IMG/VR virus record: IMGVR_UViG_2744054627_000004
DNA length: 19,912 nt
Direction: 5' to 3' (one strand)
Source: a virus
Taxonomy: Duplodnaviria; Heunggongvirae; Uroviricota; Caudoviricetes
Shown: positions 1 to 13,970 of the stretch, piece after piece
How positions within the stretch are numbered: position 1 is the first letter of the stretch
Layout: every line of letters begins with the position of its first letter
Made by a program: the position numbers and the translations under genes
The notes under the pieces: generated by a model
Seen by the model: only the letters and a program-made list of their open reading frames with translations
Database searches by the model: none
What the model was told of the DNA's origin: nothing

Positions 1-31
1 TTTTCCTTGCCATAGACACCATCCCTGTCTT

Positions 32-58
32 CCCCCACATGATGTGGGGGGTTTTTTT
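32..58 (+). terminator. Rho-independent terminator-like hairpin in the host-side flank
   Basis: Perfect 9-bp inverted repeat CCCCCACAT (32-40) / ATGTGGGGG (42-50) followed by TTTTTTT (52-58). Confidence 0.55.
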
Positions 59-142
59 ATCAAATACTTACATGCAATCAAAAGTAAAACAGTTACTTAT
101 CGAAAGCTGTAAGGGTTTGGAGCGGTTTTAAAATTTCTTGAG

Positions 143-163
143 TGTGGACACTATGTGGACACT
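143..163. other. attL P'-arm: two direct TGTGGACACT repeats, putative Int arm-type binding sites
   Basis: Direct repeats at 143-152 and 154-163 (11-bp period), 14 nt beyond the int stop; contains the TGTGGACA motif that I recall as the P2 Int arm-site consensus. Confidence 0.5.
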
Positions 164-176
164 CAGAGGGGGAAAT

Positions 177-1157
177 TTATAACGTCACTCCGCCTTTTAG
201 TGGATTCAGAGCGACGGCATTTTGCAGATAGTCAGGCGCAAGGTGCGCATAGGCCATCGTCTGCTGAATGCTCGCATGTCCCAGAATCTGTTGCAGTGCG
301 ATTATATTGCCACCATTCATCATGAAATGGCTTGCGAATGTATGCCGCAGGATGTGGGTTGCCTGATTGGGTGGTATATCAGGTTTCACTCTGCGTAAAA
401 TCCCGCAAAATTTCTCATAATCAACTTTGAATAATTTGGCGCTGGCCTCCTCTTTAACTTTTTTCTCCAGTTCCTCAGAAATCGGCACGGTTCGCTTTTT
501 ACCGTTTTTGGTTTTCAGGAAGGTAACCCTGCAATTTGTAATCTGTGCTGGTTTTAGCGTGGCAACTTCCGTCCATCTTCCTCCAGTGCTCAGACATAAA
601 AGCGCGACAAGTAAGTCATCACCAGCCAAAACATTTAACAGTTTTTCGATTTCTGCTTTTTCCAGGAACGTCATTTCAGGGTTGGCCTCCGCCAGTGGCG
701 GCAGTCCGTGAATTGGGTGTTGCCCGGAAAATTCATCCAATTGAATTAATTTTGTGAACATGCCGGATAATCTGTACATGTCACGGTTTATCGTTGCGGC
801 ACTGATACCATCACGTAGTCGCATGGAACGATAATCCATCAAAGCCCTTTTACTCATCCTGCTCACTGGTATATCACCTATGCCGCTGATGGTTTTGAGT
901 AGATGATTAAACTCTTTTGTTCCATGATCGTGGTTTTGCCCGTGATATTTCCACCAGATGTCCAGCAACTCACTCAAAGTCCGGCGGTCTGCTCGCTGGC
1001 CTCCCCATTCTTTCTGACTGGCATTGGCGATTGTGTATCGCTCAAATGCTAGTGCTTCAGCTTTTCTTTCGAATTTCCTGCGGATGCGTTTTCCGTCGCG
1101 ACCGCGAGGTCTAATGTCCACTTCATAGCGACCATCATCGAGCTTCTTAATTGCCAT
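177..1157 (-). CDS. int: Tyrosine integrase, P2 Int-like
   Basis: Listed ORF 177..1187; likely true start is the Met of MAIKKLDDGRYEV at 1157, preceded by GGAGG. C-terminal catalytic region HILRHTFASHF ... LGHASIQQTMAYAHL is typical of tyrosine recombinases. Confidence 0.9.
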   Translation of the reverse strand: MAIKKLDDGRYEVDIRPRGRDGKRIRRKFERKAEALAFERYTIANASQKEWGGQRADRRTLSELLDIWWKYHGQNHDHGTKEFNHLLKTISGIGDIPVSRMSKRALMDYRSMRLRDGISAATINRDMYRLSGMFTKLIQLDEFSGQHPIHGLPPLAEANPEMTFLEKAEIEKLLNVLAGDDLLVALLCLSTGGRWTEVATLKPAQITNCRVTFLKTKNGKKRTVPISEELEKKVKEEASAKLFKVDYEKFCGILRRVKPDIPPNQATHILRHTFASHFMMNGGNIIALQQILGHASIQQTMAYAHLAPDYLQNAVALNPLKGGVTL

Positions 1158-1226
1158 AAGAAAGCCCTCCGGCGCTGTATTCACCATCTTGGTAGCAAAT
1201 GGTGAAAATGTAATCTTTATATAGAG

Positions 1227-1519
1227 TTAGCCAATCCTTTTCGCGGAGTGGTTGGACTCTGTTGACTCTGGCCCAATGTGCGCGAGAGCCGGTGCGATTT
1301 GTCCTGCGTCCGGCGCGGTTTTATCTGTCATAAGCCATAGAGCATATTTTTGGAATGTGGGATGCATAGTGATTTTTAGCAAAGCTGTGCCACCGGGTTC
1401 AAAGTTTCCTCCTTCATATTTTTAAGTGTGCTTAGCGGTAACTCTATGATTTCACAGAATTTTGATTGGCTTAGCCCTTCAGCCTCACGCAAGGCCTTAA
1501 TCTTTTCGCTTAATTTCAT
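1227..1519 (-). CDS. C: Immunity repressor C (P2 C-like), interrupted by an apparent 1-nt frameshift
   Basis: Manual translation: ATG at 1519 gives MKLSEKIKALREAEGLSQSKFCEIIELPLSTLKNMKEETLNPVAQLC, stop at 1375-1377. The shifted frame continues ...KYALWLMTDKTAPDAGQIAPALAHIGPESTESNHSAKRIG to a stop at 1227-1229. Span is 293 nt, one short of a multiple of 3. Divergent from cox as in P2. Confidence 0.7.
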
Positions 1520-1640
1520 TTGACATGGTGCCTATATAGGGACTAAATTCCCTCAAAACTGGAACCTATATAGGTTCCATTGATTTGAGAATAAACCAGC
1601 GTCTAAACGGTTTTGAGTGGTTTAGAAAGAGCTGGATCCT
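1520..1640. promoter_or_regulatory. Immunity/early switch region (Pc/Pe promoters and operators) between C and cox
   Basis: TTGACA at 1520-1525; palindrome CCTATATAGG at 1531-1540; perfect 18-bp palindrome GGAACCTATATAGGTTCC at 1561-1578; related CCATATATGG at 1650-1659 over the cox start. Confidence 0.55.
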
Positions 1641-1928
1641 ATGAGGGTACCATATATGGACGCTGAAAATTATGTGATTCAGTATCCGCTTGATGCGGTT
1701 CATGTGGATAAATTTGCTGATTTATTAGGGAAGCCAAAGACAGCCGTCAGTGAAATGGTGAAGGCAAATAAATTACCAATTATTGAATTGCGTGATCCTT
1801 GCAAACCGAAGGCTCGTGCCGGTGAAAAATGGGTTTTCATTCCTGAGTTTAATCGCGCTGTACGTGAGGCGTTTTATAACCGACCGGTTGAACAGCGTGA
1901 TGCATGGCTTTTGTGGATGGGGTTGTGA
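1641..1928 (+). CDS. cox: Cox-like excisionase / early-switch regulator
   Basis: 95-aa ORF with P2 Cox-like features (...KLPIIELRDP...RAGEKWVFIPEFN...RDAWLLWMGL). Alternative start at 1656 (MDAENY) has a better GAGGG RBS. Stop at 1926-1928. Confidence 0.8.
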   Translation: MRVPYMDAENYVIQYPLDAVHVDKFADLLGKPKTAVSEMVKANKLPIIELRDPCKPKARAGEKWVFIPEFNRAVREAFYNRPVEQRDAWLLWMGL

Positions 1929-1930
1929 TT

Positions 1931-2101
1931 ATGAATGAGCCGCGTTGTATTGCTCAGTTATTGCGTAACGAAAGCCCCAGGGCGATTGACTTCACCATCA
2001 CCCACGGTAAGGGGCGTAAGGGAATCATTATCCGCACCAAAAAACAGAGTCCGTTAAAGAAGGCTCTGACCTTTCTGAAAAGCCGGAGGGTCTGGAAATG
2101 A
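1931..2101 (+). CDS. Small early hypothetical protein (position of P2 orf78)
   Basis: ATG at 1931 right after the cox stop; 56 aa (MNEPRCIAQLLRNESPRAIDF...); the listed ORF 1904..2101 is in the same frame. Confidence 0.5.
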   Translation: MNEPRCIAQLLRNESPRAIDFTITHGKGRKGIIIRTKKQSPLKKALTFLKSRRVWK

Positions 2102-2596
2102 CAGTGATGACGCTCAATCTCGTCGAAAAACAGCCAGCAGCTATGCGCCGGATAATTGGTAAGCATCTTGCCGTCCCTCGTTGGCAGGATACATGTGATT
2201 ATTATAATCAGATGATGGAGCGCGAACGGCTAACAGTTTGCTTTCATGCGCAGTTAAAACAACGTCACGCAACGATGCGTTTTGAAGAAATGAACGACGT
2301 CGAACGTGAACGGCTGGTTTGTGCAATTGATGAATTGCGTGGGGCATTCTCAAAACGCCGTCAGGTTGGCGCAAGTGAGTATGCATATATTAGTTTTTAA
2401 CAGTCAGTCAGCGTCGTACTTTATTTATGCATGCCGGATTGACTGAAAAGAATTCAATCAGCCATACTGGCGAATTAATGAAGAGTCATGTTACTGGCGT
2501 GATGCTTTATTCCGTGCATTACGTGAACTATTCAGTCTGTTTGAGTATGCACCGACAATTCTGACGTCGGTAAAACCAGAGCAATATTTGCATTAA
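2098..2596 (+). CDS. B: Replication gene B-like protein, two apparent homopolymer frameshifts
   Basis: ATGA-coupled start at 2098. The 100-aa ORF ends at 2400 inside a T5 run (2394-2398); the reading continues in other frames (MHAGLTEK then EFNQPYWRINEESCYWRDALFRALRELFSLFEYAPTILTSVKPEQYLH) to a stop at 2594-2596. Total about 166 aa, matching P2 B in size and position. Confidence 0.6.
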
Positions 2597-2657
2597 ATAA
2601 TTAACCAGAGTTTTTAACGCACTTAATCGTGCGGGCTTCTTTTGCCTGGAGAAAGTC

Positions 2658-2882
2658 ATGCATACAGTTTCTGAAAATCAGTGCGGTAAATACGCATTAC
2701 TGCTGCAACAGGCCAGAACCGAAGCACAGGCCGACGCTGCGACGCGCTTTTCTTCTCATCTTGACGCCATGATTCGCCATATCACAAAGGCGGAGTTATC
2801 CCGCGTGGAGATAGTCGAGCTGCTCAGTCAGGAGTCGGAAAAATTTCACAATATCGGATTGTCTCGCGGGGAGGTGCTTTGA
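2658..2882 (+). CDS. Hypothetical early protein (position of P2 orf80)
   Basis: 74-aa ORF with RBS GGAGAAAGTC upstream of the ATG. Confidence 0.6.
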
Positions 2883-3181
2883 TGTCCTGTTCTCATTCAG
2901 TTGTATTACTGAATAACGCCTTAAAAATCGCCGTTATGAAAAATGGCGATTTGTCTCTTATTCAACTTTGTCTTGATAAAGAAAAACGCGACATCACTGA
3001 ATCTGTTATCGCGATTTATCAGAATGAATTAAACCTCCTGTCTGATGTGGTCAATTTACTTGTTAAACGCGCTGTATTCCACAAGCAAATTTCCTCAGTG
3101 GATGAACTGACAAAATTAACGACAGAACTTGCCAGTTATTGCGCTGATGTATCCAGGAAACTTAACGATAAAAGGAGCTGA
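2879..3181 (+). CDS. Hypothetical early protein (position of P2 orf81)
   Basis: 100-aa ORF, ATGA overlap with the preceding ORF. Confidence 0.6.
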
Positions 3182-3183
3182 TA

Positions 3184-3408
3184 ATGCCGGACAACGTAGA
3201 TTTTATTCAGGAACAACAGGCTGAATTACTGGAGCGCCAGATTAACGCGGCAAGGGTAAAACATTGCGGTGCTTCTGCGCTGGTTTGCGAAGAGTGTGAC
3301 GCGCCAATACCTGCTGCCCGTCGTGCGGCTTATCCGTCAGCCACGCGTTGTGTTTCCTGTCAGTCAGTCTTTGAAGCAAAAAACAAACATTACCGGAGAA
3401 CGGCATGA
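3184..3408 (+). CDS. TraR/DksA-family C4 zinc-finger protein (position of P2 orf82)
   Basis: 74-aa ORF with AGGAG RBS; paired Cys motifs CEECD ... CVSCQ. Confidence 0.75.
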   Translation: MPDNVDFIQEQQAELLERQINAARVKHCGASALVCEECDAPIPAARRAAYPSATRCVSCQSVFEAKNKHYRRTA

Positions 3409-3679
3409 GTATTCGTATTGAAATTGGCGAACGTTATGTCGTTACCAGTGACAGCTTCCAGTTTATTCTCCACGAGAAAAGAGAGCGGAAAGCGGTAAAA
3501 ACGCCGGTCAGGAATGGCTGGCGGTGGTTGGTTATTACCCGAAATTAAGCCAGCTCGTTTCCGGCCTGATGCATCACGATATTCTGACCGGAAGCGCAAA
3601 GTCTTTTGCTGATTTAAACGCGCAGGTTGAGCAACTCAGCAAGCGTTGTTCAGAGGCTTTTGGCTCATATGGCCGTTAA
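3405..3679 (+). CDS. Hypothetical protein (position of P2 orf83), apparent A-run frameshift
   Basis: ATGA-coupled start at 3405 (MSIRIEIGERYVVTSDSFQFILHEKRERKAVK...). The frame breaks at the A5 run in GTAAAAACG and continues QEWLAVVGYYPKLSQLVSGLMHHDILTGSAKSFADLNAQVEQLSKRCSEAFGSYGR to a stop at 3677-3679. Confidence 0.55.
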
Positions 3680-5934
3680 AGCCTCCGGGCGTTTTGTCCC
3701 TCCGTCAGCATTTGCTGCAGGCACCGGTAAGGCGTTTACCGGTGCTTATGCATGGAACGCGCCACGCGAGGCTGTCGGGCGCGAAAGACCCCTTACACGT
3801 GACGAGATGCGTCAGGTGCAAGGTGTTTTATCCACGATTAACCGCCTGCCTTACTTTTTGCGCTCGCTGTTTACGTCACGCTATGACTACATCCGGCGCA
3901 ATAAAAGCCCGGTGCACGGGTTTTATTTCCTCACATCCACTTTTCAGCGTCGTTTATGGCCGCGCATTGAGCGTGTGAATCAGCGCCATGAAATGAACAC
4001 CGACGCGTCGATGCTGTTTCTGGCTGAGCGTGACCACTATGCGCGCCTGCCGGGAATGAATGACAAGGAGCTGAAAAAGTTTGCTGCCCGTATCTCATCG
4101 CAGCTTTTCATGATGTATGAGGAACTCAGCGATGCCTGGGTGGATGCGCATGGCGAAAAAGAATCGCTGTTTACGGATGAGGCGCAGGCTCACCTCTATG
4201 GTCATGTTGCTGGCGCTGCACGTGCTTTCAATATTTCCCCTCTCTACTGGAAAAATACCGTAAAGGACAGATGACCACGAGGCAGGCATATTCTGCCATT
4301 GCCCGTCTGTTTAACGATGAGTGGTGGATTAGTCAGCTTAAAGGCCAGCGTATGCGCTGGCATGAGGCGTTACTGATTGCTGTCGGGGAGGTCAATAAAG
4401 ACCGTTCTCCTTATGCCAGTAAACATGCCATTCGTGATGTGCGTGCACGCCGCCAGGCAAATCTGGAATTTCTTAAATCGTGTGATCTCGAAAACAGGGA
4501 AACAGGCGAGCGCATCGACCTTATCAGTAAGGTGATGGGCAGTATTTCTAATCCTGAAATTCGCCGGATGGAGCTGATGAACACCATTGCCGGTATTGAG
4601 CGTTACGCCGCCGCAGAAGGTGATGTGGGGATGTTTATCACGCTGACCGCGCCGTCAAAGTATCACCCGACACGTCAGGTTGGAAAAGGCGAAAGTAAAA
4701 CCGTCCAGCTAAATCACGGCTGGAACGATGAGGCATTTAATCCAAAGGATGCGCAGCGTTATCTCTGCCGTATCTGGAGCCTGATGCGCACGGCATTCAA
4801 GGATAATGATTTACAGGTCTACGGTTTGCGAGTCGTCGAGCCACACCACGACGGAACGCCGCACTGGCATATGATGCTTTTTTGTAATCCACGCCAGCGT
4901 AACCAGATTATCGAAATCATGCGTCGCTACGCGCTCAAAGAGGATGGCGACGAAAGAGGAGCTGCGCGAAACCGTTTTCAGGCAAAACATCTTAATCGGG
5001 GCGGTGCTGCGGGGTATATCGCGAAATACATCTCAAAAATATCGACGGCTATGCACTGGATGGGCAGCTCGATAACGATACCGGCAGACCGCTGAAAGAC
5101 ACTGCAGCGGCTGTTACCGCATGGGCGTCAACGTGGCGTATCCCGCAATTTAAAACGGTTGGTCTGCCGACAATGGGGGCTTACCGTGAACTACGCAAAT
5201 TGCCTCGCGGCGTCAGCATTGCTGATGAGTTTGACGAGCGCGTCGAGGCTGCACGCGCCGCTGCAGACAGTGGTGATTTTGCGTTGTATATCAGCGCGCA
5301 GGGCGGGGCAAATGTCCCGCGCGATTGTCAGACTGTCAGGGTCGCCCGTAGCCCGTCGGATGACGTTAACGAGTACGAGGAAGAAGTCGAGAGAGTGGTC
5401 GGCATTTACGCGCCGCATCTCGGCGCGCGTCATATTCATATCACCAGAACCACGGACTGGCGCATTGTGCCGAAAGTGCCGGTCATTGAGCCTTTGACTT
5501 TAAAAAGCGGCATCGCCGCGCCTCGGAGTCCTGTCAATAACTGTGGAAAGCTTACCGACGGTGATACTTCGTTACCGGCTCCCACACCTTCTGAGCACGC
5601 CGCAGCAGTGCTTAATCTGGTTGATGACGGTGTTATCGAATGGAATGAGCCAGAGGTCGTGAGGGCGCTCAGAGGTGCATTAAAACACGAACTGAGAACA
5701 CCAAATCGTCAGCAGAGAAACGGAAGCCCGTTAAAACCACATGAAATAGCGCCATCGGCCAGACTGACCCGGTCGGAACGAACGCAAATTACCCGTATCC
5801 GCGTTGACCTTGCTCAGAACGGTATCAGGCCGCAGCGATGGGAGCTTGAGGCGCTGGCGCGTGGGGCAACAGTAAATTATGACGGGAAAAAATTCACGTA
5901 TCCGGTCACTGATGAGTGGCCGGGATTCATATAA
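3669..5934 (+). CDS. A: Replication initiation endonuclease A (rolling-circle HUH nickase), two apparent A-run frameshifts
   Basis: Three listed ORFs (3627..4274, 4271..5095, 5173..5934) in three frames join into one protein of about 755 aa. HUH motif PHWHMMLF and tyrosine pair YIAKYISK are present. Breaks are at A5 runs 4251-4255 and 5047-5051. Likely start is MAVKASGRF at 3669. Confidence 0.88.
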
Positions 5935-6212
5935 ACTGAAATGAACAGCGTTGCAAGTGTGATAAAAATCATTATACTGTTTTTATATACAGCACCTTGA
6001 TCTGGAAAGATGCTATAAATGTATATTTCTATAAAAATATATGGTTTATTGATTGTGTATGCTCACTATCAAATTTATACTCCGCGCGCAATGTTGAGTA
6101 TGCTTAAGATATAGCGTTTACAATTCCAGGCTTGAAGGCTCGGGTATAGGTAAAAATTGAGTGTTCTCGGTTGCTTTTCGTGACATAAGAGGACAGCAAA
6201 GGAGGTTGAGTA

Positions 6213-6682
6213 TGTACAGCCCATTGAACATCGCGAATAAGTTTATAGAACTTGCTTGCGCGGCTGGTATGCCAATCACCCAGATGCAGGCACAAAAGCT
6301 GACCTATATAGCACATGGTATAAATCTGGGTTACAAAGGGACGCCTTTGTTAACGACACCAGTTTGTGCATGGCGTTATGGTCCAGTGGTTCCAGTTCTG
6401 TATAACCATCTTAAAGTTTATGGCCGTAGTCCCATAACACAACCAATACAAGTTCCATCGGCAATTTCTCAGGAGTTTGACCCTATGACTGAGCAGTTGC
6501 TGCAGAACGTTTATAACGTTTACGGTAAATATACCGCTGAGGATTTATCTGCTTTCACACATCGTGAAGGTACTCCTTGGAAGCAAGCAATGGATAGTCG
6601 TATGGATATCATTCCTGATTCCGTTATTCAGGATTACTATCAAAAGCTGCTACACGGCGATAGCAATTGCATCGGACTATGA
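6213..6682 (+). CDS. Panacea-domain (DUF4065 / GepA / PanA-like) protein, putative antitoxin-type component
   Basis: 156-aa ORF with strong RBS AAGGAGG 6 nt upstream of the ATG at 6213 (listed ORF starts earlier, at 6161, in the same frame). Signature KLTYIAHG...AWRYGPVVPVLY...YG...THREGTPW resembles what I recall of DUF4065; not checked by HMM. Confidence 0.6.
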
Positions 6683-6696
6683 GTCCGAATTAAGAT

Positions 6697-6722
6697 AACC
6701 CCGTCTATGTACGGGGTTTTTT
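6697..6722 (+). terminator. Intrinsic terminator between the Panacea-like gene and the next ORF
   Basis: Stem ACCCCGT (6698-6704) / ACGGGGT (6711-6717), loop CTATGT, then a T6 tract (6717-6722) that runs directly into the ATG at 6723. Confidence 0.6.
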
Positions 6723-7106
6723 ATGCCTGACGATAATAAGAAAGTGACAGCTGAATTTGATAAAGACCTTCTCAGACGATTGCAGCAAGCTGAGCAGAAT
6801 CTGATAACTGCCTCTGCGGCTTTGGGAGATGAGGGCTGTTGGGATGAAGAATCTCATGAGCCTGAGTCTGTTGAGGACGCTGTTGATGAAATGCAAAAGG
6901 AAGAAGAGGATGCTGCGACCATGCAGCGTTTGGATTTATCCAGTCTTAATTTTCAAATTGCTGAATTGAGTCGCTGTGTTGAAACTATAAGCACTAACCT
7001 TGAAAGCGTACAGGCAGAAACCAAAAGAAAAATGCGGAAACCGACGGCCTGCTTACGGACAATGAGCTCCGTAGAACTATGGCTGATAAAACATATCAAT
7101 TCATGA
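6723..7106 (+). CDS. Acidic, coiled-coil-like hypothetical protein (127 aa as read)
   Basis: Listed ORF; very D/E-rich central segment (DEGCWDEESHEPESVEDAVDEMQKEEEDAATMQ). The 3' end may be frameshifted into the downstream TM ORF at the A5 run 7029-7033. Confidence 0.5.
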   Translation: MPDDNKKVTAEFDKDLLRRLQQAEQNLITASAALGDEGCWDEESHEPESVEDAVDEMQKEEEDAATMQRLDLSSLNFQIAELSRCVETISTNLESVQAETKRKMRKPTACLRTMSSVELWLIKHINS

Positions 7107-7165
7107 TTGTTTGGTGTTGTTTTGTCGGCTGGGTCATATTTATGTATGTATTGAAAAAGATTTGA
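7103..7165 (+). CDS. Tiny hydrophobic single-TM peptide (20 aa; 28 aa if started at ATG 7079)
   Basis: Manual translation MIVWCCFVGWVIFMYVLKKI; ATGA overlap with the stop of the 127-aa ORF; not in the ORF track because under 60 aa. Confidence 0.35.
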   Translation: MIVWCCFVGWVIFMYVLKKI

Positions 7166-7193
7166 TCCACCAGAAACAATTATCATTGCGCTT

Positions 7194-7292
7194 ATGGGAA
7201 CCACAACTGTGAGTATTGTGGGATTGGTTGGGTTTGTTGTTAGTGGTTTGTTCAAAAGCAACAATAAACCTTCTGGCGACAATAAAAATTAA
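7194..7292 (+). CDS. Tiny hydrophobic single-TM peptide (32 aa)
   Basis: Manual translation MGTTTVSIVGLVGFVVSGLFKSNNKPSGDNKN. The same frame is open upstream (KRFDPPETIIIAL...), so it may be the second TM helix of one frameshifted two-TM protein. Confidence 0.3.
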   Translation: MGTTTVSIVGLVGFVVSGLFKSNNKPSGDNKN

Positions 7293-7300
7293 TCATCAAA

Positions 7301-7327
7301 GTGGCACCTTTGGGTGCTATTTTTTTG
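7301..7327 (+). terminator. Intrinsic terminator closing the cargo module
   Basis: Stem GGCACC (7303-7308) / GGTGCT (7313-7318), loop TTTG, followed by ATTTTTTT. Confidence 0.6.
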
Positions 7328-7477
7328 CTTTTTCCGCGATTTCACTGTTTTTTCCGTGCATCATGTGATGCATGAGTTTGAATGTGCTTTAGTCGAGCTC
7401 ACTTGCTTTCTGCTGCCAATGCTAGCTAGGTTTGACGGTGTTCATGCAACTGCATTAAACCGACCATGAAGCGGGCG

Positions 7478-7494
7478 GGCGAGGCGGAAAGCAC
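7478..7494. other. cos: cos site (cohesive-end sequence) of the P2-like phage
   Basis: GGCGAGGCGGAAAGCAC matches my recollection of the P2 19-nt cohesive end GGCGAGGCGGGGAAAGCAC except for a shorter G run; it sits between the cargo and Q as in P2 prophages. Confidence 0.65.
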
Positions 7495-7662
7495 TGCGCG
7501 CTGGCGGTGGTGCTGATTTTATTTTTTCGGCGTCTCAGCGCGTCGTGATGGCGTTTAGATTGTGTGCCGGGGCGTCGGTGTGTCTGCGGGCTGTTTTGCG
7601 TGGAGGTGAGCGTGTGAGGGCGTGATGACGGGGTGTAAAAAGCCGCCCGCAGGCGGCGATGT

Positions 7663-8692
7663 TCAGCCGTTGTCAGTGTCCAGTGAGTAGTTTTTAAAGC
7701 GGATGACCTCCTGACCGAGCCAGCCGTTTATCTCGCGGATCCTGTCCTGTAGCGGGATAAGCTCATTGCGGACAAAGACCTTTGCCACTTTCTCAATATC
7801 ACCCAACGACCCGACGTTCTCCGGCTTGCCGCCCATCAACTGAAAGGGGATGCGGTGCGCGTCCAGCAGGTCAGCGGCGCTGGCTTTTTGATATTAAAAA
7901 ATCGTCCTTCGTTGCCACTTCACTGAGCGGGATAATTTTAATGCCGTCGACTTTCCCTGCGGGGCATAGAGAAACAGATTTTTAAAGTTGTTGCGGCCTT
8001 TCGACTTCACCATGTTTTCGCGAAGCATTTCGATATCGTTGCGATTCTGCACGGCATCAGTGACGTACATGATGTATCCGGCATGTGCGCCGTTTTCGTA
8101 ATACTTGCGGCGAAACAGCGTGGCCGACTCATTCAGCCAGGCAGAATTAAGGGCGCTGAGATATTCCGGCAGGCCGTACAGCTCCTGATTAATATCCGGC
8201 TCCAGCAGGTGAAACACGGAGCCGGGCGTGAAGGCTGTCGGCTCGTTGAAGGACGGCACCCACCAGTAAACATCCTCTTCCACACCACGGCGGGTATATT
8301 TTGCCGGTGAGGTTTCCAGTCTGATGACCTTACCGGTGGTGCTGTATCGCTTTTCCAGAAACGCATTACCGAACACCAGAAAATCCAGCACAAAGCGGCT
8401 GAAATCCTGTTGCGAAAGCCACGGGTGCGGGATAAACGTTGAAGCCAGAATATTGCGTTTGACGTAAATCGGTGAGCTGTGATGCACGGCAGCACGCAGG
8501 CTTTTGCCAGACCGGTAAAGCTGACCGGTGGCTCATACCATCTGCCGTTACTGATGCACTCGACGTAATCCAGAATGTCACGGCGGTCGAGTACCGGCAC
8601 CGGCTCACCAAAGGTGAATGCTCCATTTTCGGGGCGCTGGCGGTCATTGTTTTTGCCGCAGGTTGCGGTGTTTTCCCTTTTTTCTTGCTCAT
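7663..8692 (-). CDS. Q: Portal protein Q, multiple apparent frameshifts
   Basis: Start [19 protein letters not shown] at 8692; listed fragments 8366..8692, 8133..8600 and 7894..8487 lie in different frames; C-terminus ...EVIRFKNYSLDTDNG ends at 7663. Span 1030 nt against about 1035 expected. Confidence 0.85.
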
Positions 8693-10458
8693 CAGTAAAA
8701 CTCCAGAATGGTGGATGTCAGCGGAGTGCTGATACCGGCGGTGAGTGGCTCATTTAACAGGGCGTGCATGGTCGCCCAGGCGAGGTCGGCGTGGCTGGCT
8801 TCCTCGCTGCGGCTGGCCTCATAGGTGGCGCTGCGTCCGCTGCTGGTCATGGTCTTGCGGATAGCCATAAACGAGCTGGTGATGTCGGTGGCGCTGACGT
8901 CATATTCCAGACAGCCACGACGGATAACGTCTTTTGCCTTGAGCACCATTGCGGTTTTCATTTCCGGCGTGTAGCGGATATCGCGCGCGGCGGGATAGAA
9001 CGAGCGCACGAGCTGGAACACGCCGACACCGAGGCCGGTGGCATCAATCCCGATGTATTCAACGTTGTATTTTTCGGTGAGTTTGCGGATGGATTCCGCC
9101 TGGGTGGCAAAGTCCATGCCTTTCCACTGGTGACGCTCAAGTATTCTGAATTTGCCACCGGCCACCACCGGCGGTGCCAGTACCACGCATCCGGCGCTGT
9201 CGCCACGGTGTGACGGGTCGTAACCAATCCATACCGGACGTGAGCCGAACGGATTGGCGGCAAACGGCGCATAGTCTTCCCATTCTTCCAGCGTGTCGAC
9301 CATGCAGCGTTGCAGCTCCTCGAACGGGAACACCGACGCCTTGTCGTCAACAAATTCACACATGAACAGGTTTTTAAAATCGTCGGCGCTGTTTTCACGT
9401 TTGAGCTGCTCAATGTCGAACAGTGTGCAGCCGCCTTTCAGGGCATCCTCAATGGTGACAATCTGCCGCCACTGGCCGTCCGCACAGAGAAGACCTCCGG
9501 CAAGGGCGTTATGACTGACGTCGATTTCCACACGTTCGGCTGCGCTGGCGCGTCCCCGGTTGAACAGTTCACCCGACCAGAACGGGTAGGCGTCGTGCGC
9601 CAGCGTGGACGGGGTGGAGAAATAGGTCGAACGCAGGTGACTCTGTGAGGCCATACCTGATGCCACCTTACGCAGTACCTGAAAATTCGGGATCCAGAAA
9701 ATCTCGTCGACGTACAGGTCGCCGTTATGGCTCTGCGCGGTGTTGGAGTTGGTGCCGAGAAAATCAGTTTTGCGCCGTTATTGCCCAGGACAATCGGGTC
9801 ACCGGTCAGGTCAACGTCAACCAGCCGGGCAAAGGCGATGATGTATTCGCGGAACACATACGCCTGCGTTTTACTGGCCGACAGAAAAATCTGGTTATGA
9901 CCGGTTTTCAGGGCGCGCAGCAGCGCCTCGCGGGAAAATAAAACGTCGCGCCAATCTGGCGGGATTTCAGGATATCGCGGATGCGGTGCTCAAGCCCGGC
10001 GCGATACCAGTGCAACTGATAGTCGAAAGACTGCTCAAAGAAAATCTGCTCCAGCTTTTCGATGGCCTCGTCACTGAAAAATTCTTTTCGGTTTGCGACG
10101 CCCGCCTTTGTTGCGGTTAGCGATGTTCGGATTAAGGTCTGCCTCGTTGCCGGTCTGGCTGTAGCGGTTTACCCGTGCCAGTCGTTCAATCTGGCGTCCG
10201 AGCAGGTCAATTTCCTTGAAGTCACCGCCGGTTTTCTGCGGTTTGATGATGAGCTGGATCAGCCGCGCTTCCAGACTCATTTCGACACGGCTGATGGGGG
10301 CAACACTGTCCCAGCCGTCGCGCTGTTTCCAGCTCTGCACCGTCGGGCGTTTCATCTGCAACATGGCGGCAATCTGCGGCACGGAAACCCTGCCAGTACA
10401 GCAGCGCCGCCTGACGACGCGGGTCGTGTAAAAGAGTGGTGTCTGTGGTGATGGTCAT
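8692..10458 (-). CDS. P: Terminase large subunit (ATPase) P, multiple apparent frameshifts
   Basis: Start [25 protein letters not shown] at 10458 with a GAGG RBS; fragments 10222..10488, 10071..10382, 9438..9857 and 8692..9666 in different frames. Example break: plus-strand A4 run 9760-9763. Confidence 0.85.
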
Positions 10459-10631
10459 GAATACCTCGCCGTGATGAATACACGGCAAGGCTACTGAGTC
10501 GCGCCCCGCGATTCGCTAAGGTGCTGTTGTGTCAGTGATAAGCCATCCGGGACTGATGGCGGAGGATGCGCATCGTCGGGAAACTGATGCCGACATGTGA
10601 CTCCTCTAATCACTATTCAGGACTCCTGACA

Positions 10632-11485
10632 ATGGCAAAAAAAGTCTCAAAATTCTTTCGTATCGGCGTTGAGGGTGACACCTGTGACGGGCGTGTCATC
10701 AGTGCGCAGGATATTCAGGAAATGGCCGAAACCTTTGACCCGCGAGTCTATGGTTGCCGCATTAACCTGGAACATCTGCGCGGCATCCTGCCTGACGGTA
10801 TTTTTAAGCGTTATGGCGATGTGGCCGAACTGAAGGCCGAAAAGATTGACGATGATTCGGCGCTGAAAGGCAAATGGGCGCTGTTTGCGAAAATCACCCC
10901 GACCGATGACCTTATCGCGATGAACAAGGCCGCGCAGAAGGTCTACACCTCAATGGAAATTCAGCCGAACTTTGCCAACACCGGCAAATGTTATCTGGTG
11001 GGGCTGGCCGTCACCGATGACCCGGCAAGCCTCGGCACGGAATACCTGGAATTCTGCCGCACGGCAAAACACAACCCCCTGAACCGCTTCAAATTAAGCC
11101 CTGAAAACCTGATTTCAGTGGCAACGCCTGTTGAGCTGGAATTTGAAGACCTGCCTGAAACCGTGTTCACCGCCCTGACCGAAAAGGTGAAATCCATTTT
11201 TGGCCGCAAACAGGCCAGCGATGATGCCCGTCTGAATGACGTGCATGAAGCGGTGACCGCTGTTGCTGAACATGTGCAGGAAAAACTGAGCGCCACTGAG
11301 CAGCGCATCGAAGAAATGGAAACCGCCTTTTCTGCACTTAAGCAGGAGATGACTGACAAGGCGGATGAAACCAGCCAGGCATTCAGCCGCCTGAAAACAG
11401 TCTCGACCACACCGAAAGTCTGACCCAGCAGCGCCGCAGCAAGGCCACCGGCGGTGGCGGTGACGCCCTGATGACGAACTGCTGA
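10632..11485 (+). CDS. O: Capsid scaffolding protein O, frameshift near the 3' end
   Basis: Listed ORF 10566..11423; likely start MAKKVSKFFRIGVEG at 10632. The A4 run 11394-11397 truncates the reading; the shifted frame continues ...LTQQRRSKATGGGGDALMTNC to a stop at 11483-11485. Confidence 0.85.
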
Positions 11486-11543
11486 CCGGCGTCAGCCAGT
11501 CCGGGAAAACCTTCACGATTAACCCTTAATTTCAGGAAAAACT

Positions 11544-12616
11544 ATGCGCCAGGAAACCCGCTTTAAATTTAATGCCTACCTGTCCCGTGTTGCCGAACTG
11601 AACGGCATCGACGCCGGTGATGTGTCGAAAAAATTCACCGTTGAACCGTCGGTCACCCAGACCCTGATGAACACCATGCAGGAGTCCTCTGACTTTCTGA
11701 CCCGCATCAACATTGTGCCGGTCAGCGAAATGAAAGGGGAAAAAATTGGTATTGGTGTCACCGGCTCCATCGCCAGCACCACCGACACCGCCGGTGGCAC
11801 CGAGCGTCAGCCGAAGGACTTCTCGAAGCTGGCGTCAAACAAGTACGAATGCGACCAGATTAACTTCGATTTTTATATCCGCTACAAAACGCTGGACCTG
11901 TGGGCGCGTTATCAGGATTTCCAGCTCCGTATCCGTAACGCCATTATCAAACGCCAGTCCCTTGATTTCATCATGGCCGGTTTTAACGGTGTGAAGCGTG
12001 CCGAAACCTCTGACCGCAACAGTAATCCGATGTTGCAGGATGTGGCGGTCGGCTGGCTGCAGAAATACCGCAATGAAGCCCGGCGCGCGTGATGAGCAAG
12101 GTCACTGACGAGGAAGGCCATACCACCTCTGAGGTTATCCGCGTGGGTAAGGGCGGTGATTATGCCAGCCTCGATGCACTGGTGATGGATGCGACCAACA
12201 ACCTGATTGAGCCGTGGTATCAGGAAGACCCTGACCTTGTGGTGATTGTGGGACGTCAGCTACTGGCGGACAAGTATTTCCCCATCGTTAACAAGGAGCA
12301 GGATAACAGCGAAATGCTGGCCGCTGACGTCATCATCAGCCAGAAACGCATCGGTAACCTGCCGGCGGTGCGCGTCCCGTACTTCCCGGCAGATGCGATG
12401 CTCATCACGAAGCTGGAAAACCTGTCCGTCTACTACATGGATGACAGCCATCGCCGCGTGATTGAGGAAAACCCGAAACTCGACCGCGTGGAGAACTACG
12501 AGTCAATGAACATTGATTACGTGGTGGAAGACTACGCCGCCGGTTGTCTGGTGGAAAAAATCAAGGTCGGTGATTTCTCCACACCGGCTAAGGCGACCGC
12601 AGAGCCGGGAGCGTAA
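11544..12616 (+). CDS. N: Major capsid protein N, one apparent frameshift
   Basis: ORFs 11544..12092 and 12089..12616 join to about 357 aa; break at the C3 run 12079-12081. Confidence 0.88.
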
Positions 12617-12619
12617 CCG

Positions 12620-13407
12620 ATGACGAGTCCCGCACAGCGCCACATGATGCGGGTCTCGGCAGCGATGACCGCGCAGCGGGAAGCCGCCCCGCTGCGACAT
12701 GCAACTGTCTATGAGCAGATGCTGGTTAAGCTCGCCGCAGACCAGCGCACACTGAAAGCGATTTATTCAAAAGAGCTTAAGGCCGCGAAAAGCGCGAACT
12801 GCTGCCGTTCTGGTTGCCGTGGGTGAACGGTGTGCTGGAGCAGGGCAAAGGTGCACAGGATGACATTCTGATGACGGTCATGCTGTGGCGTCTGGATACC
12901 GGCGATATTGCCGGTGCGCTGGAGATTGCCCGTTATGCCCTGAAGTACGGTCTGACCATGCCGGGTAAACACCGCCGTACCCGCCGTACATGTTCACCGA
13001 GGAGGTGGCGCTTGCGGCCATGCGCGCTCACGCTGCCGGTGAATCCGTGGATACCCGCCTGCTGACGGAGACCCTTGAACTGACCGCCACGGCAGACATG
13101 CCTGATGAAGTGCGCGCAAAGCTGCACAAATTACCGGTCTGTTTCTGCGTGACGCTGGTGATGCTGCAGGGGCACTGGCGCACCTGCAACGTGCGACACA
13201 GCTCGACTGTCAGGCAGGCGTCAAAAAGAGATTGAACGACTGGAGCGGGAGCTGAAACCGAAGCCGGAGCCGCAGCCCAAAGCAGCGACCCGCGCCCCGC
13301 GTAAGACCCGGAGCGTGACACCGGCAAAACGTGGACGCCCGAAAAAAGAAAAGCCAGTTAACAACCCCCGAATGCGCCCCGCGCCAGGGCGGCACGCCGG
13401 TCAGTGA
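12620..13407 (+). CDS. M: Terminase small (endonuclease) subunit M, multiple apparent frameshifts; 3' end uncertain
   Basis: Fragments 12620..12826, 12814..13065 and 12990..13235 plus a further frame ending at 13405-13407; N-terminus MTSPAQRHMMRVSAAMTAQREA. Confidence 0.75.
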
Positions 13408-13463
13408 GGGTGAATCACCTGACACTGCACCGGCGTCCACCGCCCGACTTTTCAGAGGTAGTC

Positions 13464-13970
13464 ATGATGACGCTGATTATTCCGCGAAAGGAGGCTCCCG
13501 TGTCCGGTGAGGGTACGGTGGTCATCCCGCAACCGGCAGGCGATGAGCCGGTGATTAAAACACGTTCTTTTTCCCGATATCGACCCGAAGCGCGTCCGGG
13601 AACGTATGCGCCTTGAGCAGACCGTCGCCCCCGCCCGTCTGCGTGAGGCCATCAAGTCAGGCATGGCGGAAACAAATGCGGAGCTGTACGAGTACCGCGA
13701 ACAGAAAATTGCCGCCGGTTTTACGCGTCTGGCGGACGTTCCGGCGGACGACATCGACGGTGAAAGTATCAAAGTTTTTACTACGAGCGCGCCGTGTGTG
13801 CGATGGCGACCGCGTCGCTTTATGAGCGTTATCGCGGCGTGGATGCCAGTGCGAAAGGCGACAAGAAGGCTGACAGCATTGACAGCACCATTGATGAACT
13901 GTGGCGGGATATGCGCTGGGCGGTGGCGCGTATCCAGGACAAGCCGCGCTGCATCGTGAGTCAAATCTGA
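13464..13970 (+). CDS. L: Head completion/stabilisation protein L, apparent frameshifts
   Basis: Start MMTLIIPRKEAPVSGEG at 13464 with a GAGG RBS; continues in ORF 13606..13959 (MRLEQTVAPARLREAIKSG...) and a third frame ending ...RCIVSQI at 13968-13970. Confidence 0.8.

Follow-up and report, generated by a model that had tools for sequence, protein, structure and literature searches.

The question raised by this locus is what a short AT-rich island contributes to a P2-like prophage when it occupies the interval between the replication gene gpA and the cohesive-end site (cos). The island lies in a 19,912-nucleotide stretch of DNA from a caudoviricete virus (IMG/VR record IMGVR_UViG_2744054627_000004), which is referred to as a whole as the window. 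The original prediction, made from the sequence alone, described the island as a candidate undescribed defence or toxin–antitoxin (TA) module with three to four small genes. The analysis presented here indicates that it is very probably a two-gene PanAT type II TA operon in the P2 gpA–cos hotspot, in which the toxin, PanT, would be a membrane pore-former bound directly by the antitoxin, PanA. The evidence consists of the gene structure of the locus, its homologies, the conservation of the gene pair, the sequence of an SOS box, covariation within an intergenic hairpin and residence in the hotspot.

Downstream of panA the window contains three short open reading frames (ORFs) at 6723–7106 (127 residues), 7079–7165 and 7194–7292, which were originally read as an acidic coiled-coil ORF and tiny transmembrane (TM) ORFs, each a separate gene. 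All three match a single profile, phrog_26171 (190 residues), at the consecutive positions 1–106, 120–146 and 159–190. The intact operon is annotated in 11 complete Escherichia coli genomes as a Panacea protein of 156 residues followed by a 'DUF2975' protein of 190 residues (WP_001112381.1), and the locus of E. coli CUVM3 (NZ_CP116970.1, 3301290–3302700; locus L001) was taken as the reference for this arrangement. When the window was compared with CUVM3 in 500-bp bins, the stretch 6000–7499 was free of substitutions, and one fell at 5993, within the LexA box. Within panT there are three one-base homopolymer deletions, at approximately 7027 (A6 to A5), at 7158 (A6 to A5) and at 7160 (T4 to T3). 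Across the 13.4 kb compared (window 1–13465) a total of 38 bases are deleted relative to CUVM3, nearly all of them in A, T, C or G homopolymers; examples are found at 4250, 5034, 7027, 7158, 7160, 7485 and 7884–7954. The portal and terminase regions are also affected, and gpA is likewise split, into three frames.

This pattern of deletions points to an unpolished long-read assembly, and the split toxin gene is most likely a sequencing artefact, because the changes are homopolymer contractions spread over 13.4 kb, gpA is broken too, and panA and panT are free of substitutions. The competing explanation is that panT is a true pseudogene in this strain, in a decaying locus from which an orphan antitoxin survives. 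The three frameshifts present in the window sequence and the 127-residue product annotated there by NCBI speak for it, but each of the three changes is a single-base contraction of an A or T run, and the lack of substitutions in panA and panT fits sequencing error and not decay. A real pseudogene was rejected on these grounds and is considered very unlikely. Because the three ORFs fall on one profile and are split by homopolymer deletions that occur throughout the window, the real unit comprises two genes; the additional small genes proposed originally are fragments of one frameshift-split toxin gene. The homopolymer errors call for caution with every ORF call in the window.

The first gene of the pair encodes the Panacea/DUF4065-like protein that had been anticipated. 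In a hidden Markov model (HMM) search PanA matched Pfam PF13274 (SocA_Panacea) with an E value of 5.2e-18 over profile positions 2–113 of 113; the score, 66.5 bits, is well above the gathering cut-off of 25.7. PanA also matches phrog_1281 (E = 1e-47) and aligns over its full length with the validated PanA WP_000287252.1 (45% identity, E = 8e-46). The window panA is 100% identical in DNA to the gene for WP_047090264.1 of CUVM3, and the strong ribosome-binding site attributed to the module is present ahead of it. Among PDB sequences, phmmer with PanA as the query returned no relative of solved structure.

The intact PanT aligns with the validated PanT WP_000019185.1 over the C-terminal 95 residues (44% identity, E = 1e-27, BLASTP). 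Its N-terminal 120 residues are acidic (pI of 4.2), and Kyte–Doolittle hydropathy in 19-residue windows exceeds 1.8 at residues 125–145 and 153–175. The AlphaFold2 (AF2) model has helices at 53–145 and 152–180 joined by a turn, with the helical hairpin there at pLDDT 71–86. The toxin family comprises 72 clusters in the database search, nearly all from Enterobacterales. Its alignment contains 23 invariant residues, nearly all of which lie within the TM hairpin, and the N-terminal half is variable; the juxtamembrane motif DNxLRxxMA and the hairpin motif ALxGTxTxSIVGLVGFVVSGLFKS are practically invariant. Membership of DUF2975 (PF11188), after which RefSeq names PanT, was rejected: the match scores 22.1 bits against a cut-off of 27 (E = 1.6e-4) and spans residues 127–179 only. 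The likeness is restricted to the TM hairpin, and the RefSeq name does not denote family membership (window 6723–7292; L001 6824–7396). No holin family was found for the toxin among Pfam matches at E values up to 1 or among PHROG matches. Some database entries for the toxin (P0072 and P0073; alignment A1 columns 1–12; L027 1280–1315) start 11–12 codons too early; the overlong N-termini (MINPVYITGFF..., MISPVTLRGFFL...) come from reading the intergenic hairpin and T-run as coding sequence, and the conserved start is the ATG directly after the T-run.

The function of the pair can be approached through its validated relatives. The E. coli STEC O31 pair WP_000287252.1/WP_000019185.1 (PanA/PanT, toxin cluster T3) passed a toxicity-neutralisation assay, and its PanT stops all macromolecular synthesis, depolarises the membrane (measured with DiSC3(5)) and lets SYTOX Green in (Kurata 2022, PMC8832971). 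WP_000019185.1 belongs to the family of the window toxin and has WP_000287252.1 as its neighbouring antitoxin. The pairing is conserved: in all eight distant loci for which upstream DNA was available, and in 12 of 12 further loci fetched, the gene immediately before the toxin homologue encodes a PanA homologue on the same strand, and the pairing is seen from Enterobacterales to Caulobacter, Niveispirillum, Methylocystis and Bryobacterales. A stand-alone Panacea antitoxin is known to neutralise a Bartonella membrane toxin by binding the segment before its TM region (Ernits 2023). By analogy with these systems we infer that PanT is toxic and that PanA neutralises it. PanT would insert in the inner membrane, depolarise it and form pores, as expected from its homology to STEC O31 PanT, and PanA, made from the upstream cistron, would counter it by direct binding. 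The probable contact on PanT is the conserved DNxLRxxMA helix (residues about 113–121), which immediately precedes the first TM helix and would be the obvious counterpart of the Bartonella toxin segment bound by Panacea. The originally proposed TA design, with a Panacea antitoxin and a membrane-active partner, is supported by the PF13274 match, the TM motif of the toxin and its hydropathy.

Table 1. Features of the panAT island and its boundaries, in window coordinates.
Feature	Position	Strand	Basis or remark
AT-rich cargo island	5935–7327	+	gpA stop to the terminator before cos; P2 orf91/tin/old position
Candidate promoter P1, sigma-70-like (TTGCAA, 16-nt spacer, TATACT)	5951–5978	+	Consensus scan, 9 of 12 matches
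LexA (SOS) box, TACTGTTTTTATATACAGCA	5975–5994	.	Consensus match; overlaps the P1 −10
Second promoter-like element (TTGTGT, 17-nt spacer, TATACT at 6076–6081, then GC-rich CCGCGCGC)	6053–6090	+	Read from sequence
Shine–Dalgarno (SD) sequence, AGGAGG	6200–6205	+	6 nt before the panA ATG; read from sequence
panA, predicted stand-alone Panacea (DUF4065) antitoxin, 156 residues, intact in the window	6212–6682	+	Pfam PF13274, phrog_1281, homology to validated PanA
Intergenic hairpin, 8-bp stem, loop of 6, followed by T6; ends at the panT ATG	6697–6722	+	Terminator scan (6697–6718 plus T-run)
panT, predicted membrane toxin, 190 residues when intact (WP_001112381.1); split into three ORFs in the window	6723–7292	+	phrog_26171, indel map
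Intrinsic terminator at the operon end, 11-bp stem plus T-run	7298–7330	+	Scan (7298–7323 plus T-run), sequence
cos cohesive-end sequence	7478–7494	.	Right hotspot boundary; compared with annotated P2 cosR

The boundaries and composition of the island agree with its description as AT-rich cargo between gene A and cos. The island has a GC content of 0.408, whereas the remainder of the window stands at 0.540, with gpA at 0.533 and the packaging genes at 0.559. The gpA stop is at 5934; the alignment with P2 gpA (90–98% identity, in three frames) reaches 5928, and in tblastn gpA similarity is confined to DNA upstream of the island. At the other boundary, P2 cosR is GGCGAGGCGGGGAAAGCAC and its equivalent in the window is GGCGAGGCGGAAAGCAC, which is only 17 nt long because GGGG reads as GG (two G missing relative to CUVM3). 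In the P2 reference map the gpA–cos interval is occupied by orf91, tin and old. No homologue of P2 Orf91, Tin or Old was found in 5935–7480 by tblastn (nothing below an E value of 1.3), in keeping with its placement among non-core hotspot cargo. Of 5426 complete E. coli genomes, 11 carry the island at 99% identity or above, in every case in a P2-like prophage and flanked by gpA and the portal gene. None of 50,697 phage records matched it by megablast, and a search of the entire window at the Rfam gathering threshold returned no family. In CUVM3 the cargo-bearing P2-like prophage adjoins cpxP and has its integrase at the left end; the window starts about 90 nt into the locus (L001 1–1250).

Comparison of the gpA–cos interval across P2-like prophages showed that PanAT recurs there. 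At least ten relatives lie between gpA and the portal gene, in seven genera: Escherichia (a second E. coli allele), Salmonella, Buttiauxella, Pantoea (two species), Cronobacter, Enterobacter and Serratia (two species). The toxins of these diverged relatives are 35–75% identical. Some of these modules are the sole cargo and others stand beside RVT_1, KAP NTPase, DUF4145 or DinI genes. Intervals that PanAT shares with RVT_1, KAP NTPase, DUF4145 or DUF8209 plus DUF1493 genes are seen at L016 3946–5655, L017 3964–5724, L018 4066–6189, L025 3853–4551 and L024 3963–4717; PanAT is therefore often part of a multi-system island. Further relatives occupy the ends of prophages of the lambdoid or Stx type or lie in different islands. 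A tblastn search with the toxin found no match in 72,556 plasmids, and among phage records it found only three lambdoid phages with the STEC-type pair. This distribution suits phage cargo with a role in phage–phage or phage–host conflict, without showing defence.

The STEC O31 pair is flagged 'NotPhage' in the Kurata dataset, yet in phage genomes of the lambdoid or Stx2k type it takes up the extreme end (L014 561–1605; L003 3061–4105; L023 308–1352, phage PhiR47_1, PV340566.1; phiSTEC1575-Stx2k; phage 1720a-02). It adjoins a truncated dusA-type fragment, and three LexA-box-like sites lie between a consensus promoter and panA.

The sequence upstream of panA suggests how the operon may be switched on. 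The P1 segment, including the LexA box, was found only in the 11 genomes with the panAT cargo and therefore travels with the module. Measured against the consensus TACTG(TA)5CAGTA (PMC9578287), the box matches at 17 of 20 positions in the window and at 18 of 20 in L001 and L002. The window contains no other match, and 200 shuffles produced none. Boxes are present between the preceding gene and panA in 16 of 17 distinct enterobacterial loci (the window and L001 counted once), with none elsewhere in those loci; in the lambdoid-type loci the LexA-like boxes are just downstream of panAT's own −10. Alpha-type SOS boxes (GAAC-N7-GAAC) precede panA by 6 nt in Caulobacter and by 66 nt in Niveispirillum, each the sole match in its locus (L008 3416–3430, Caulobacter sp. 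BE254; L010 578–592, a Niveispirillum metagenome-assembled genome, MAG). None was found in Methylocystis (L013), an unclassified MAG (L009) or Bryobacterales (L011). The conservation of these sites suggests LexA control of the T3-type PanAT family in two proteobacterial classes.

A second group of loci bears on the same box. Many P2-like prophages carry a strong LexA box right after gpA, followed by a conserved ORF of 62–66 residues (phrog_698/8554/1993) and sometimes then by dinI (L015 2037–2274; L016 1725–1967; L017 1582–2080; L018 1812–2050; L024 1441–1669; L025 1803–2295; L027 365–576; L005 at about 2958; L006 at about 3078). One of the small ORFs weakly matches the N-terminal part of a 151-residue 'DinI' PHROG. 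This arrangement looks like a split tum-type SOS operon of the phage 186 kind at the entrance of the defence hotspot. In relatives with the small ORF, panAT follows about 400 nt later, behind the second conserved promoter-like element. The small ORF is absent in the window, L001, L004, L022 and L026; in the window no tum-like remnant of it lies between the LexA box and panA, and the terminator scan predicted no terminator between the two. A LexA-controlled transcript should therefore run into panAT.

The second promoter-like element scores below the scan threshold in the window. A −10 followed by GCGCGC is found approximately 130–190 nt upstream of panA in six other loci (L004, L022, L005, L006, L016 and L017), with weaker −10 plus GC-rich versions in four more (L014, L015, L018 and L020). 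The −10 of this element, TATAAT or TATACT, stands directly before CGCGCGC, an arrangement reminiscent of a GC-rich discriminator or of a small operator with a palindrome. The operon would be driven by P1, under the control of the LexA box, together with this second conserved promoter. On balance we favour LexA control of at least one panAT promoter, a prediction held with moderate confidence.

The two genes are separated by a hairpin that may set the ratio of their products. The module had been described as bracketed by two terminators; hairpins with T-runs are indeed present at both places, but the one at 6697–6722 is internal and separates panA from panT. The scan found six terminator-like sites in the region compared with 1.7 expected. 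The intergenic hairpin is GC-rich and has a fold energy of −13.7 kcal/mol. Among 12 distinct relatives 100% of the cells are paired (34–56% in slid controls), with compensatory changes in four of the eight pairs, and the following T-run is kept in nine of the 12. The only SD-like purines for panT (GGGG and GAGG) sit in the 3′ arm of the hairpin. The lambdoid-type relatives are without the hairpin and have short open spacers of 21–25 nt. It appears reasonably likely that the hairpin throttles the toxin through partial termination combined with a masked panT ribosome-binding site. By ending some of the transcripts and hiding the toxin site it would keep PanT below PanA, and the antitoxin would always exceed the toxin.

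The pair itself has been seen before. WP_000287234 and WP_001112381 are listed as 'DUF4065 + hypothetical' among the P2 gpA–gpQ hotspot loci in Table S5 of Rousset 2022 (PMC9122126), and the names PanA and PanT are already attached to the STEC-type genes in a GenBank phage record of 2025. Contrary to the original prediction, the combination is not an undescribed system, because the PanAT type is named and characterised, through the homologous STEC O31 pair, and the exact pair is in that list. Judged from its sequence, the locus is a new, diverged member of the known PanAT family in a known hotspot. The statement that it corresponds to no named defence system was upheld, since PADLOC has no model for it. 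In the literature nothing was found that links PanAT or DUF4065 to phage defence or to LexA; PMC12829572 and PMC7556043 matched merely through word coincidence or unrelated LexA sites.

Several observations weigh against the reading of the island as a PanAT operon with SOS and hairpin control and a possible role in defence. Proof that the frameshifts are artefacts would require reads. The closest validated relative of the pair is only about 45% identical, the N-terminal halves of PanT and the validated STEC toxin do not align, and the AF2 model of PanT is of low confidence overall (pLDDT of 62.7) and usable for the TM hairpin only. On the side of regulation, the second promoter-like element is without a LexA box, and in many P2-hotspot relatives the LexA box directly precedes the small tum-like ORF and/or dinI and not panA. 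The window's box may be left over from a tum-like/dinI operon, and its attribution to panAT is uncertain because in many P2 loci it precedes another small gene. Three of the 12 hairpins are without an uninterrupted T-run, so termination at this site is not universal. With regard to defence, Rousset 2022 (PMC9122126) catalogued the pair, which is absent from the tested-system table and text of that paper. None of the PADLOC-DB v2.0.0 HMMs is matched by the fragments or by PanA, and the intact toxin matches only CARF_TM at an E value of 0.052. In the literature searched, phage defence is not reported for any membrane-type PanAT.

The most likely role would be release of the toxin on infection or DNA damage, with abortive infection or dormancy benefiting the lysogen as the outcome, and different roles can be built on the same TA mechanism. 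One, which concerns the role and is compatible with that mechanism, is dedicated anti-phage abortive infection, in which a phage, or the DNA damage or SOS signal it causes, would free PanT and the membrane would be depolarised before the phage cycle ends. The P2 gpA–cos hotspot houses old, tin, retrons and other validated systems, the relatives share it with RVT_1 and KAP NTPase genes, and the toxin recurs in prophages and is absent from the plasmids searched; membrane effectors are common among abortive-infection effectors (Rousset 2022, PMC9122126), and the membrane-depolarising RosmerTA toxin of the same TA network defends against phages. Nevertheless, neither a PADLOC match nor a published defence phenotype was found, the pair was outside the tested set of Rousset 2022, in which three of eight additional P2-hotspot systems protected, and the hotspot also holds non-defence cargo such as partition systems and cytolethal distending toxin. 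We regard dedicated abortive infection as a possibility worth entertaining, with the balance somewhat against it. A more specific proposal joins it to the regulatory features: T3-type PanAT modules might be SOS-licensed suicide or dormancy switches carried by temperate phages as exclusion cargo. LexA cleavage, brought about by DNA damage, induction of a co-resident prophage or phage attack on the chromosome, would open the operon; the terminator and SD-masking hairpin would set the toxin level, and read-through, unmasking or loss of PanA would end in membrane collapse. This proposal is tentative and we consider it rather doubtful.

The module might instead be taken mainly for a prophage addiction or stabilisation cassette, or for a TisB-type SOS dormancy switch that aids survival of the lysogen, with no action on other phages. 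Validation of the homologue as a classical type II TA, the conserved upstream LexA boxes and membrane depolarisation by the toxin homologue, like that caused by TisB, DinQ and HokE, are all in line with such a role. It is nonetheless unlikely: post-segregational killing offers little to an integrated prophage, none of the plasmids searched carries the family, although addiction modules do well on plasmids, and the large pores of the homologue, with SYTOX uptake, look like killing more than reversible dormancy. That PanT and PanA form an accessory holin/antiholin pair tuning the lysis timing of the P2-like phage is extremely improbable. Two C-terminal TM helices, large inner-membrane pores made by the homologue and SOS-linked promoters that fit phage induction would accommodate it, but the reading was rejected in the absence of any holin family among the Pfam or PHROG matches. 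In addition, the P2 lysis cassette does not include the module, lambdoid phages carry members of this family well away from their lysis genes, and, because only 11 of 5426 genomes carry it, the module is dispensable cargo.

The preferred reading, a PanAT operon in the P2 hotspot, corrects an over-reading: what was taken for an undescribed multi-gene defence island is a PanAT pair with a characterised E. coli relative, and the extra 'genes' most likely arise from homopolymer errors. It also places the membrane-toxin PanAT family as a recurrent occupant of the P2 gpA–cos defence hotspot in at least seven genera of enterobacteria. Two regulatory hypotheses, LexA control and attenuation by an intercistronic hairpin, were not found in the literature searched, and they offer experimental access to the activation of Panacea systems. 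E. coli CUVM3 is one source of an intact locus with its native regulation. Were the SOS-licensed proposal true, it would give a Panacea system its first anti-phage phenotype, natural regulatory input and cis-regulatory element.

Among known systems, STEC O31 PanAT is a close counterpart of the window operon. The two share the antitoxin-then-toxin order, a stand-alone Panacea antitoxin of 156–157 residues, a toxin with an acidic N-terminal half and a two-helix membrane hairpin of nearly identical motif, carriage by prophages and LexA-box-like sites upstream. They differ in that the STEC O31 pair is located at the end of lambdoid/Stx-type prophages and not in the P2 hotspot, lacks the intergenic hairpin, having instead an open SD in a spacer of 22 nt, and has its LexA-like boxes just downstream of its own −10 and not on a separate upstream promoter. 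The PanAT pairs of Bartonella apis/choladocola (T12/D11; Kurata 2022; Ernits 2023) likewise set a stand-alone Panacea against a toxin with a charged N-terminus and C-terminal TM region. The Bartonella toxin depolarises the membrane, forms pores and is neutralised by binding before the TM region. It belongs to another toxin cluster, and no match to it turned up in general searches, which did not include a direct sequence comparison.

The type VI system SocAB of Caulobacter has the DUF4065/Panacea antitoxin domain in common with the window pair, and RefSeq calls some cluster members 'SocA domain-containing'. Membership of SocAB was rejected: the SocA equivalog NF047745 scores 98.6 bits against a cut-off of 190, and the partner is a membrane protein and not SocB. 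Unlike SocA, the window PanA would be expected, from the validated PanAT pairs, to neutralise by binding and not as a ClpXP adaptor. With P2 old/tin and other hotspot cargo (Rousset 2022, PMC9122126) the operon shares the cos-proximal position between gpA and the portal gene and an AT-rich, mobile and variable character. P2 old and tin are transcribed leftward, whereas the window operon runs rightward like gpA and has no sequence relation to old, tin or orf91.

TisB, DinQ and HokE are SOS-induced, membrane-depolarising toxins of E. coli; systems of the TisB/IstR-1 kind are type I, with RNA antitoxins and toxic peptides of about 30–50 residues. The likeness to the window operon is a LexA box at the promoter of a small toxin that depolarises the inner membrane. 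The window operon differs from them in having a protein as its antitoxin and a toxin of 190 residues, with LexA control as a prediction.

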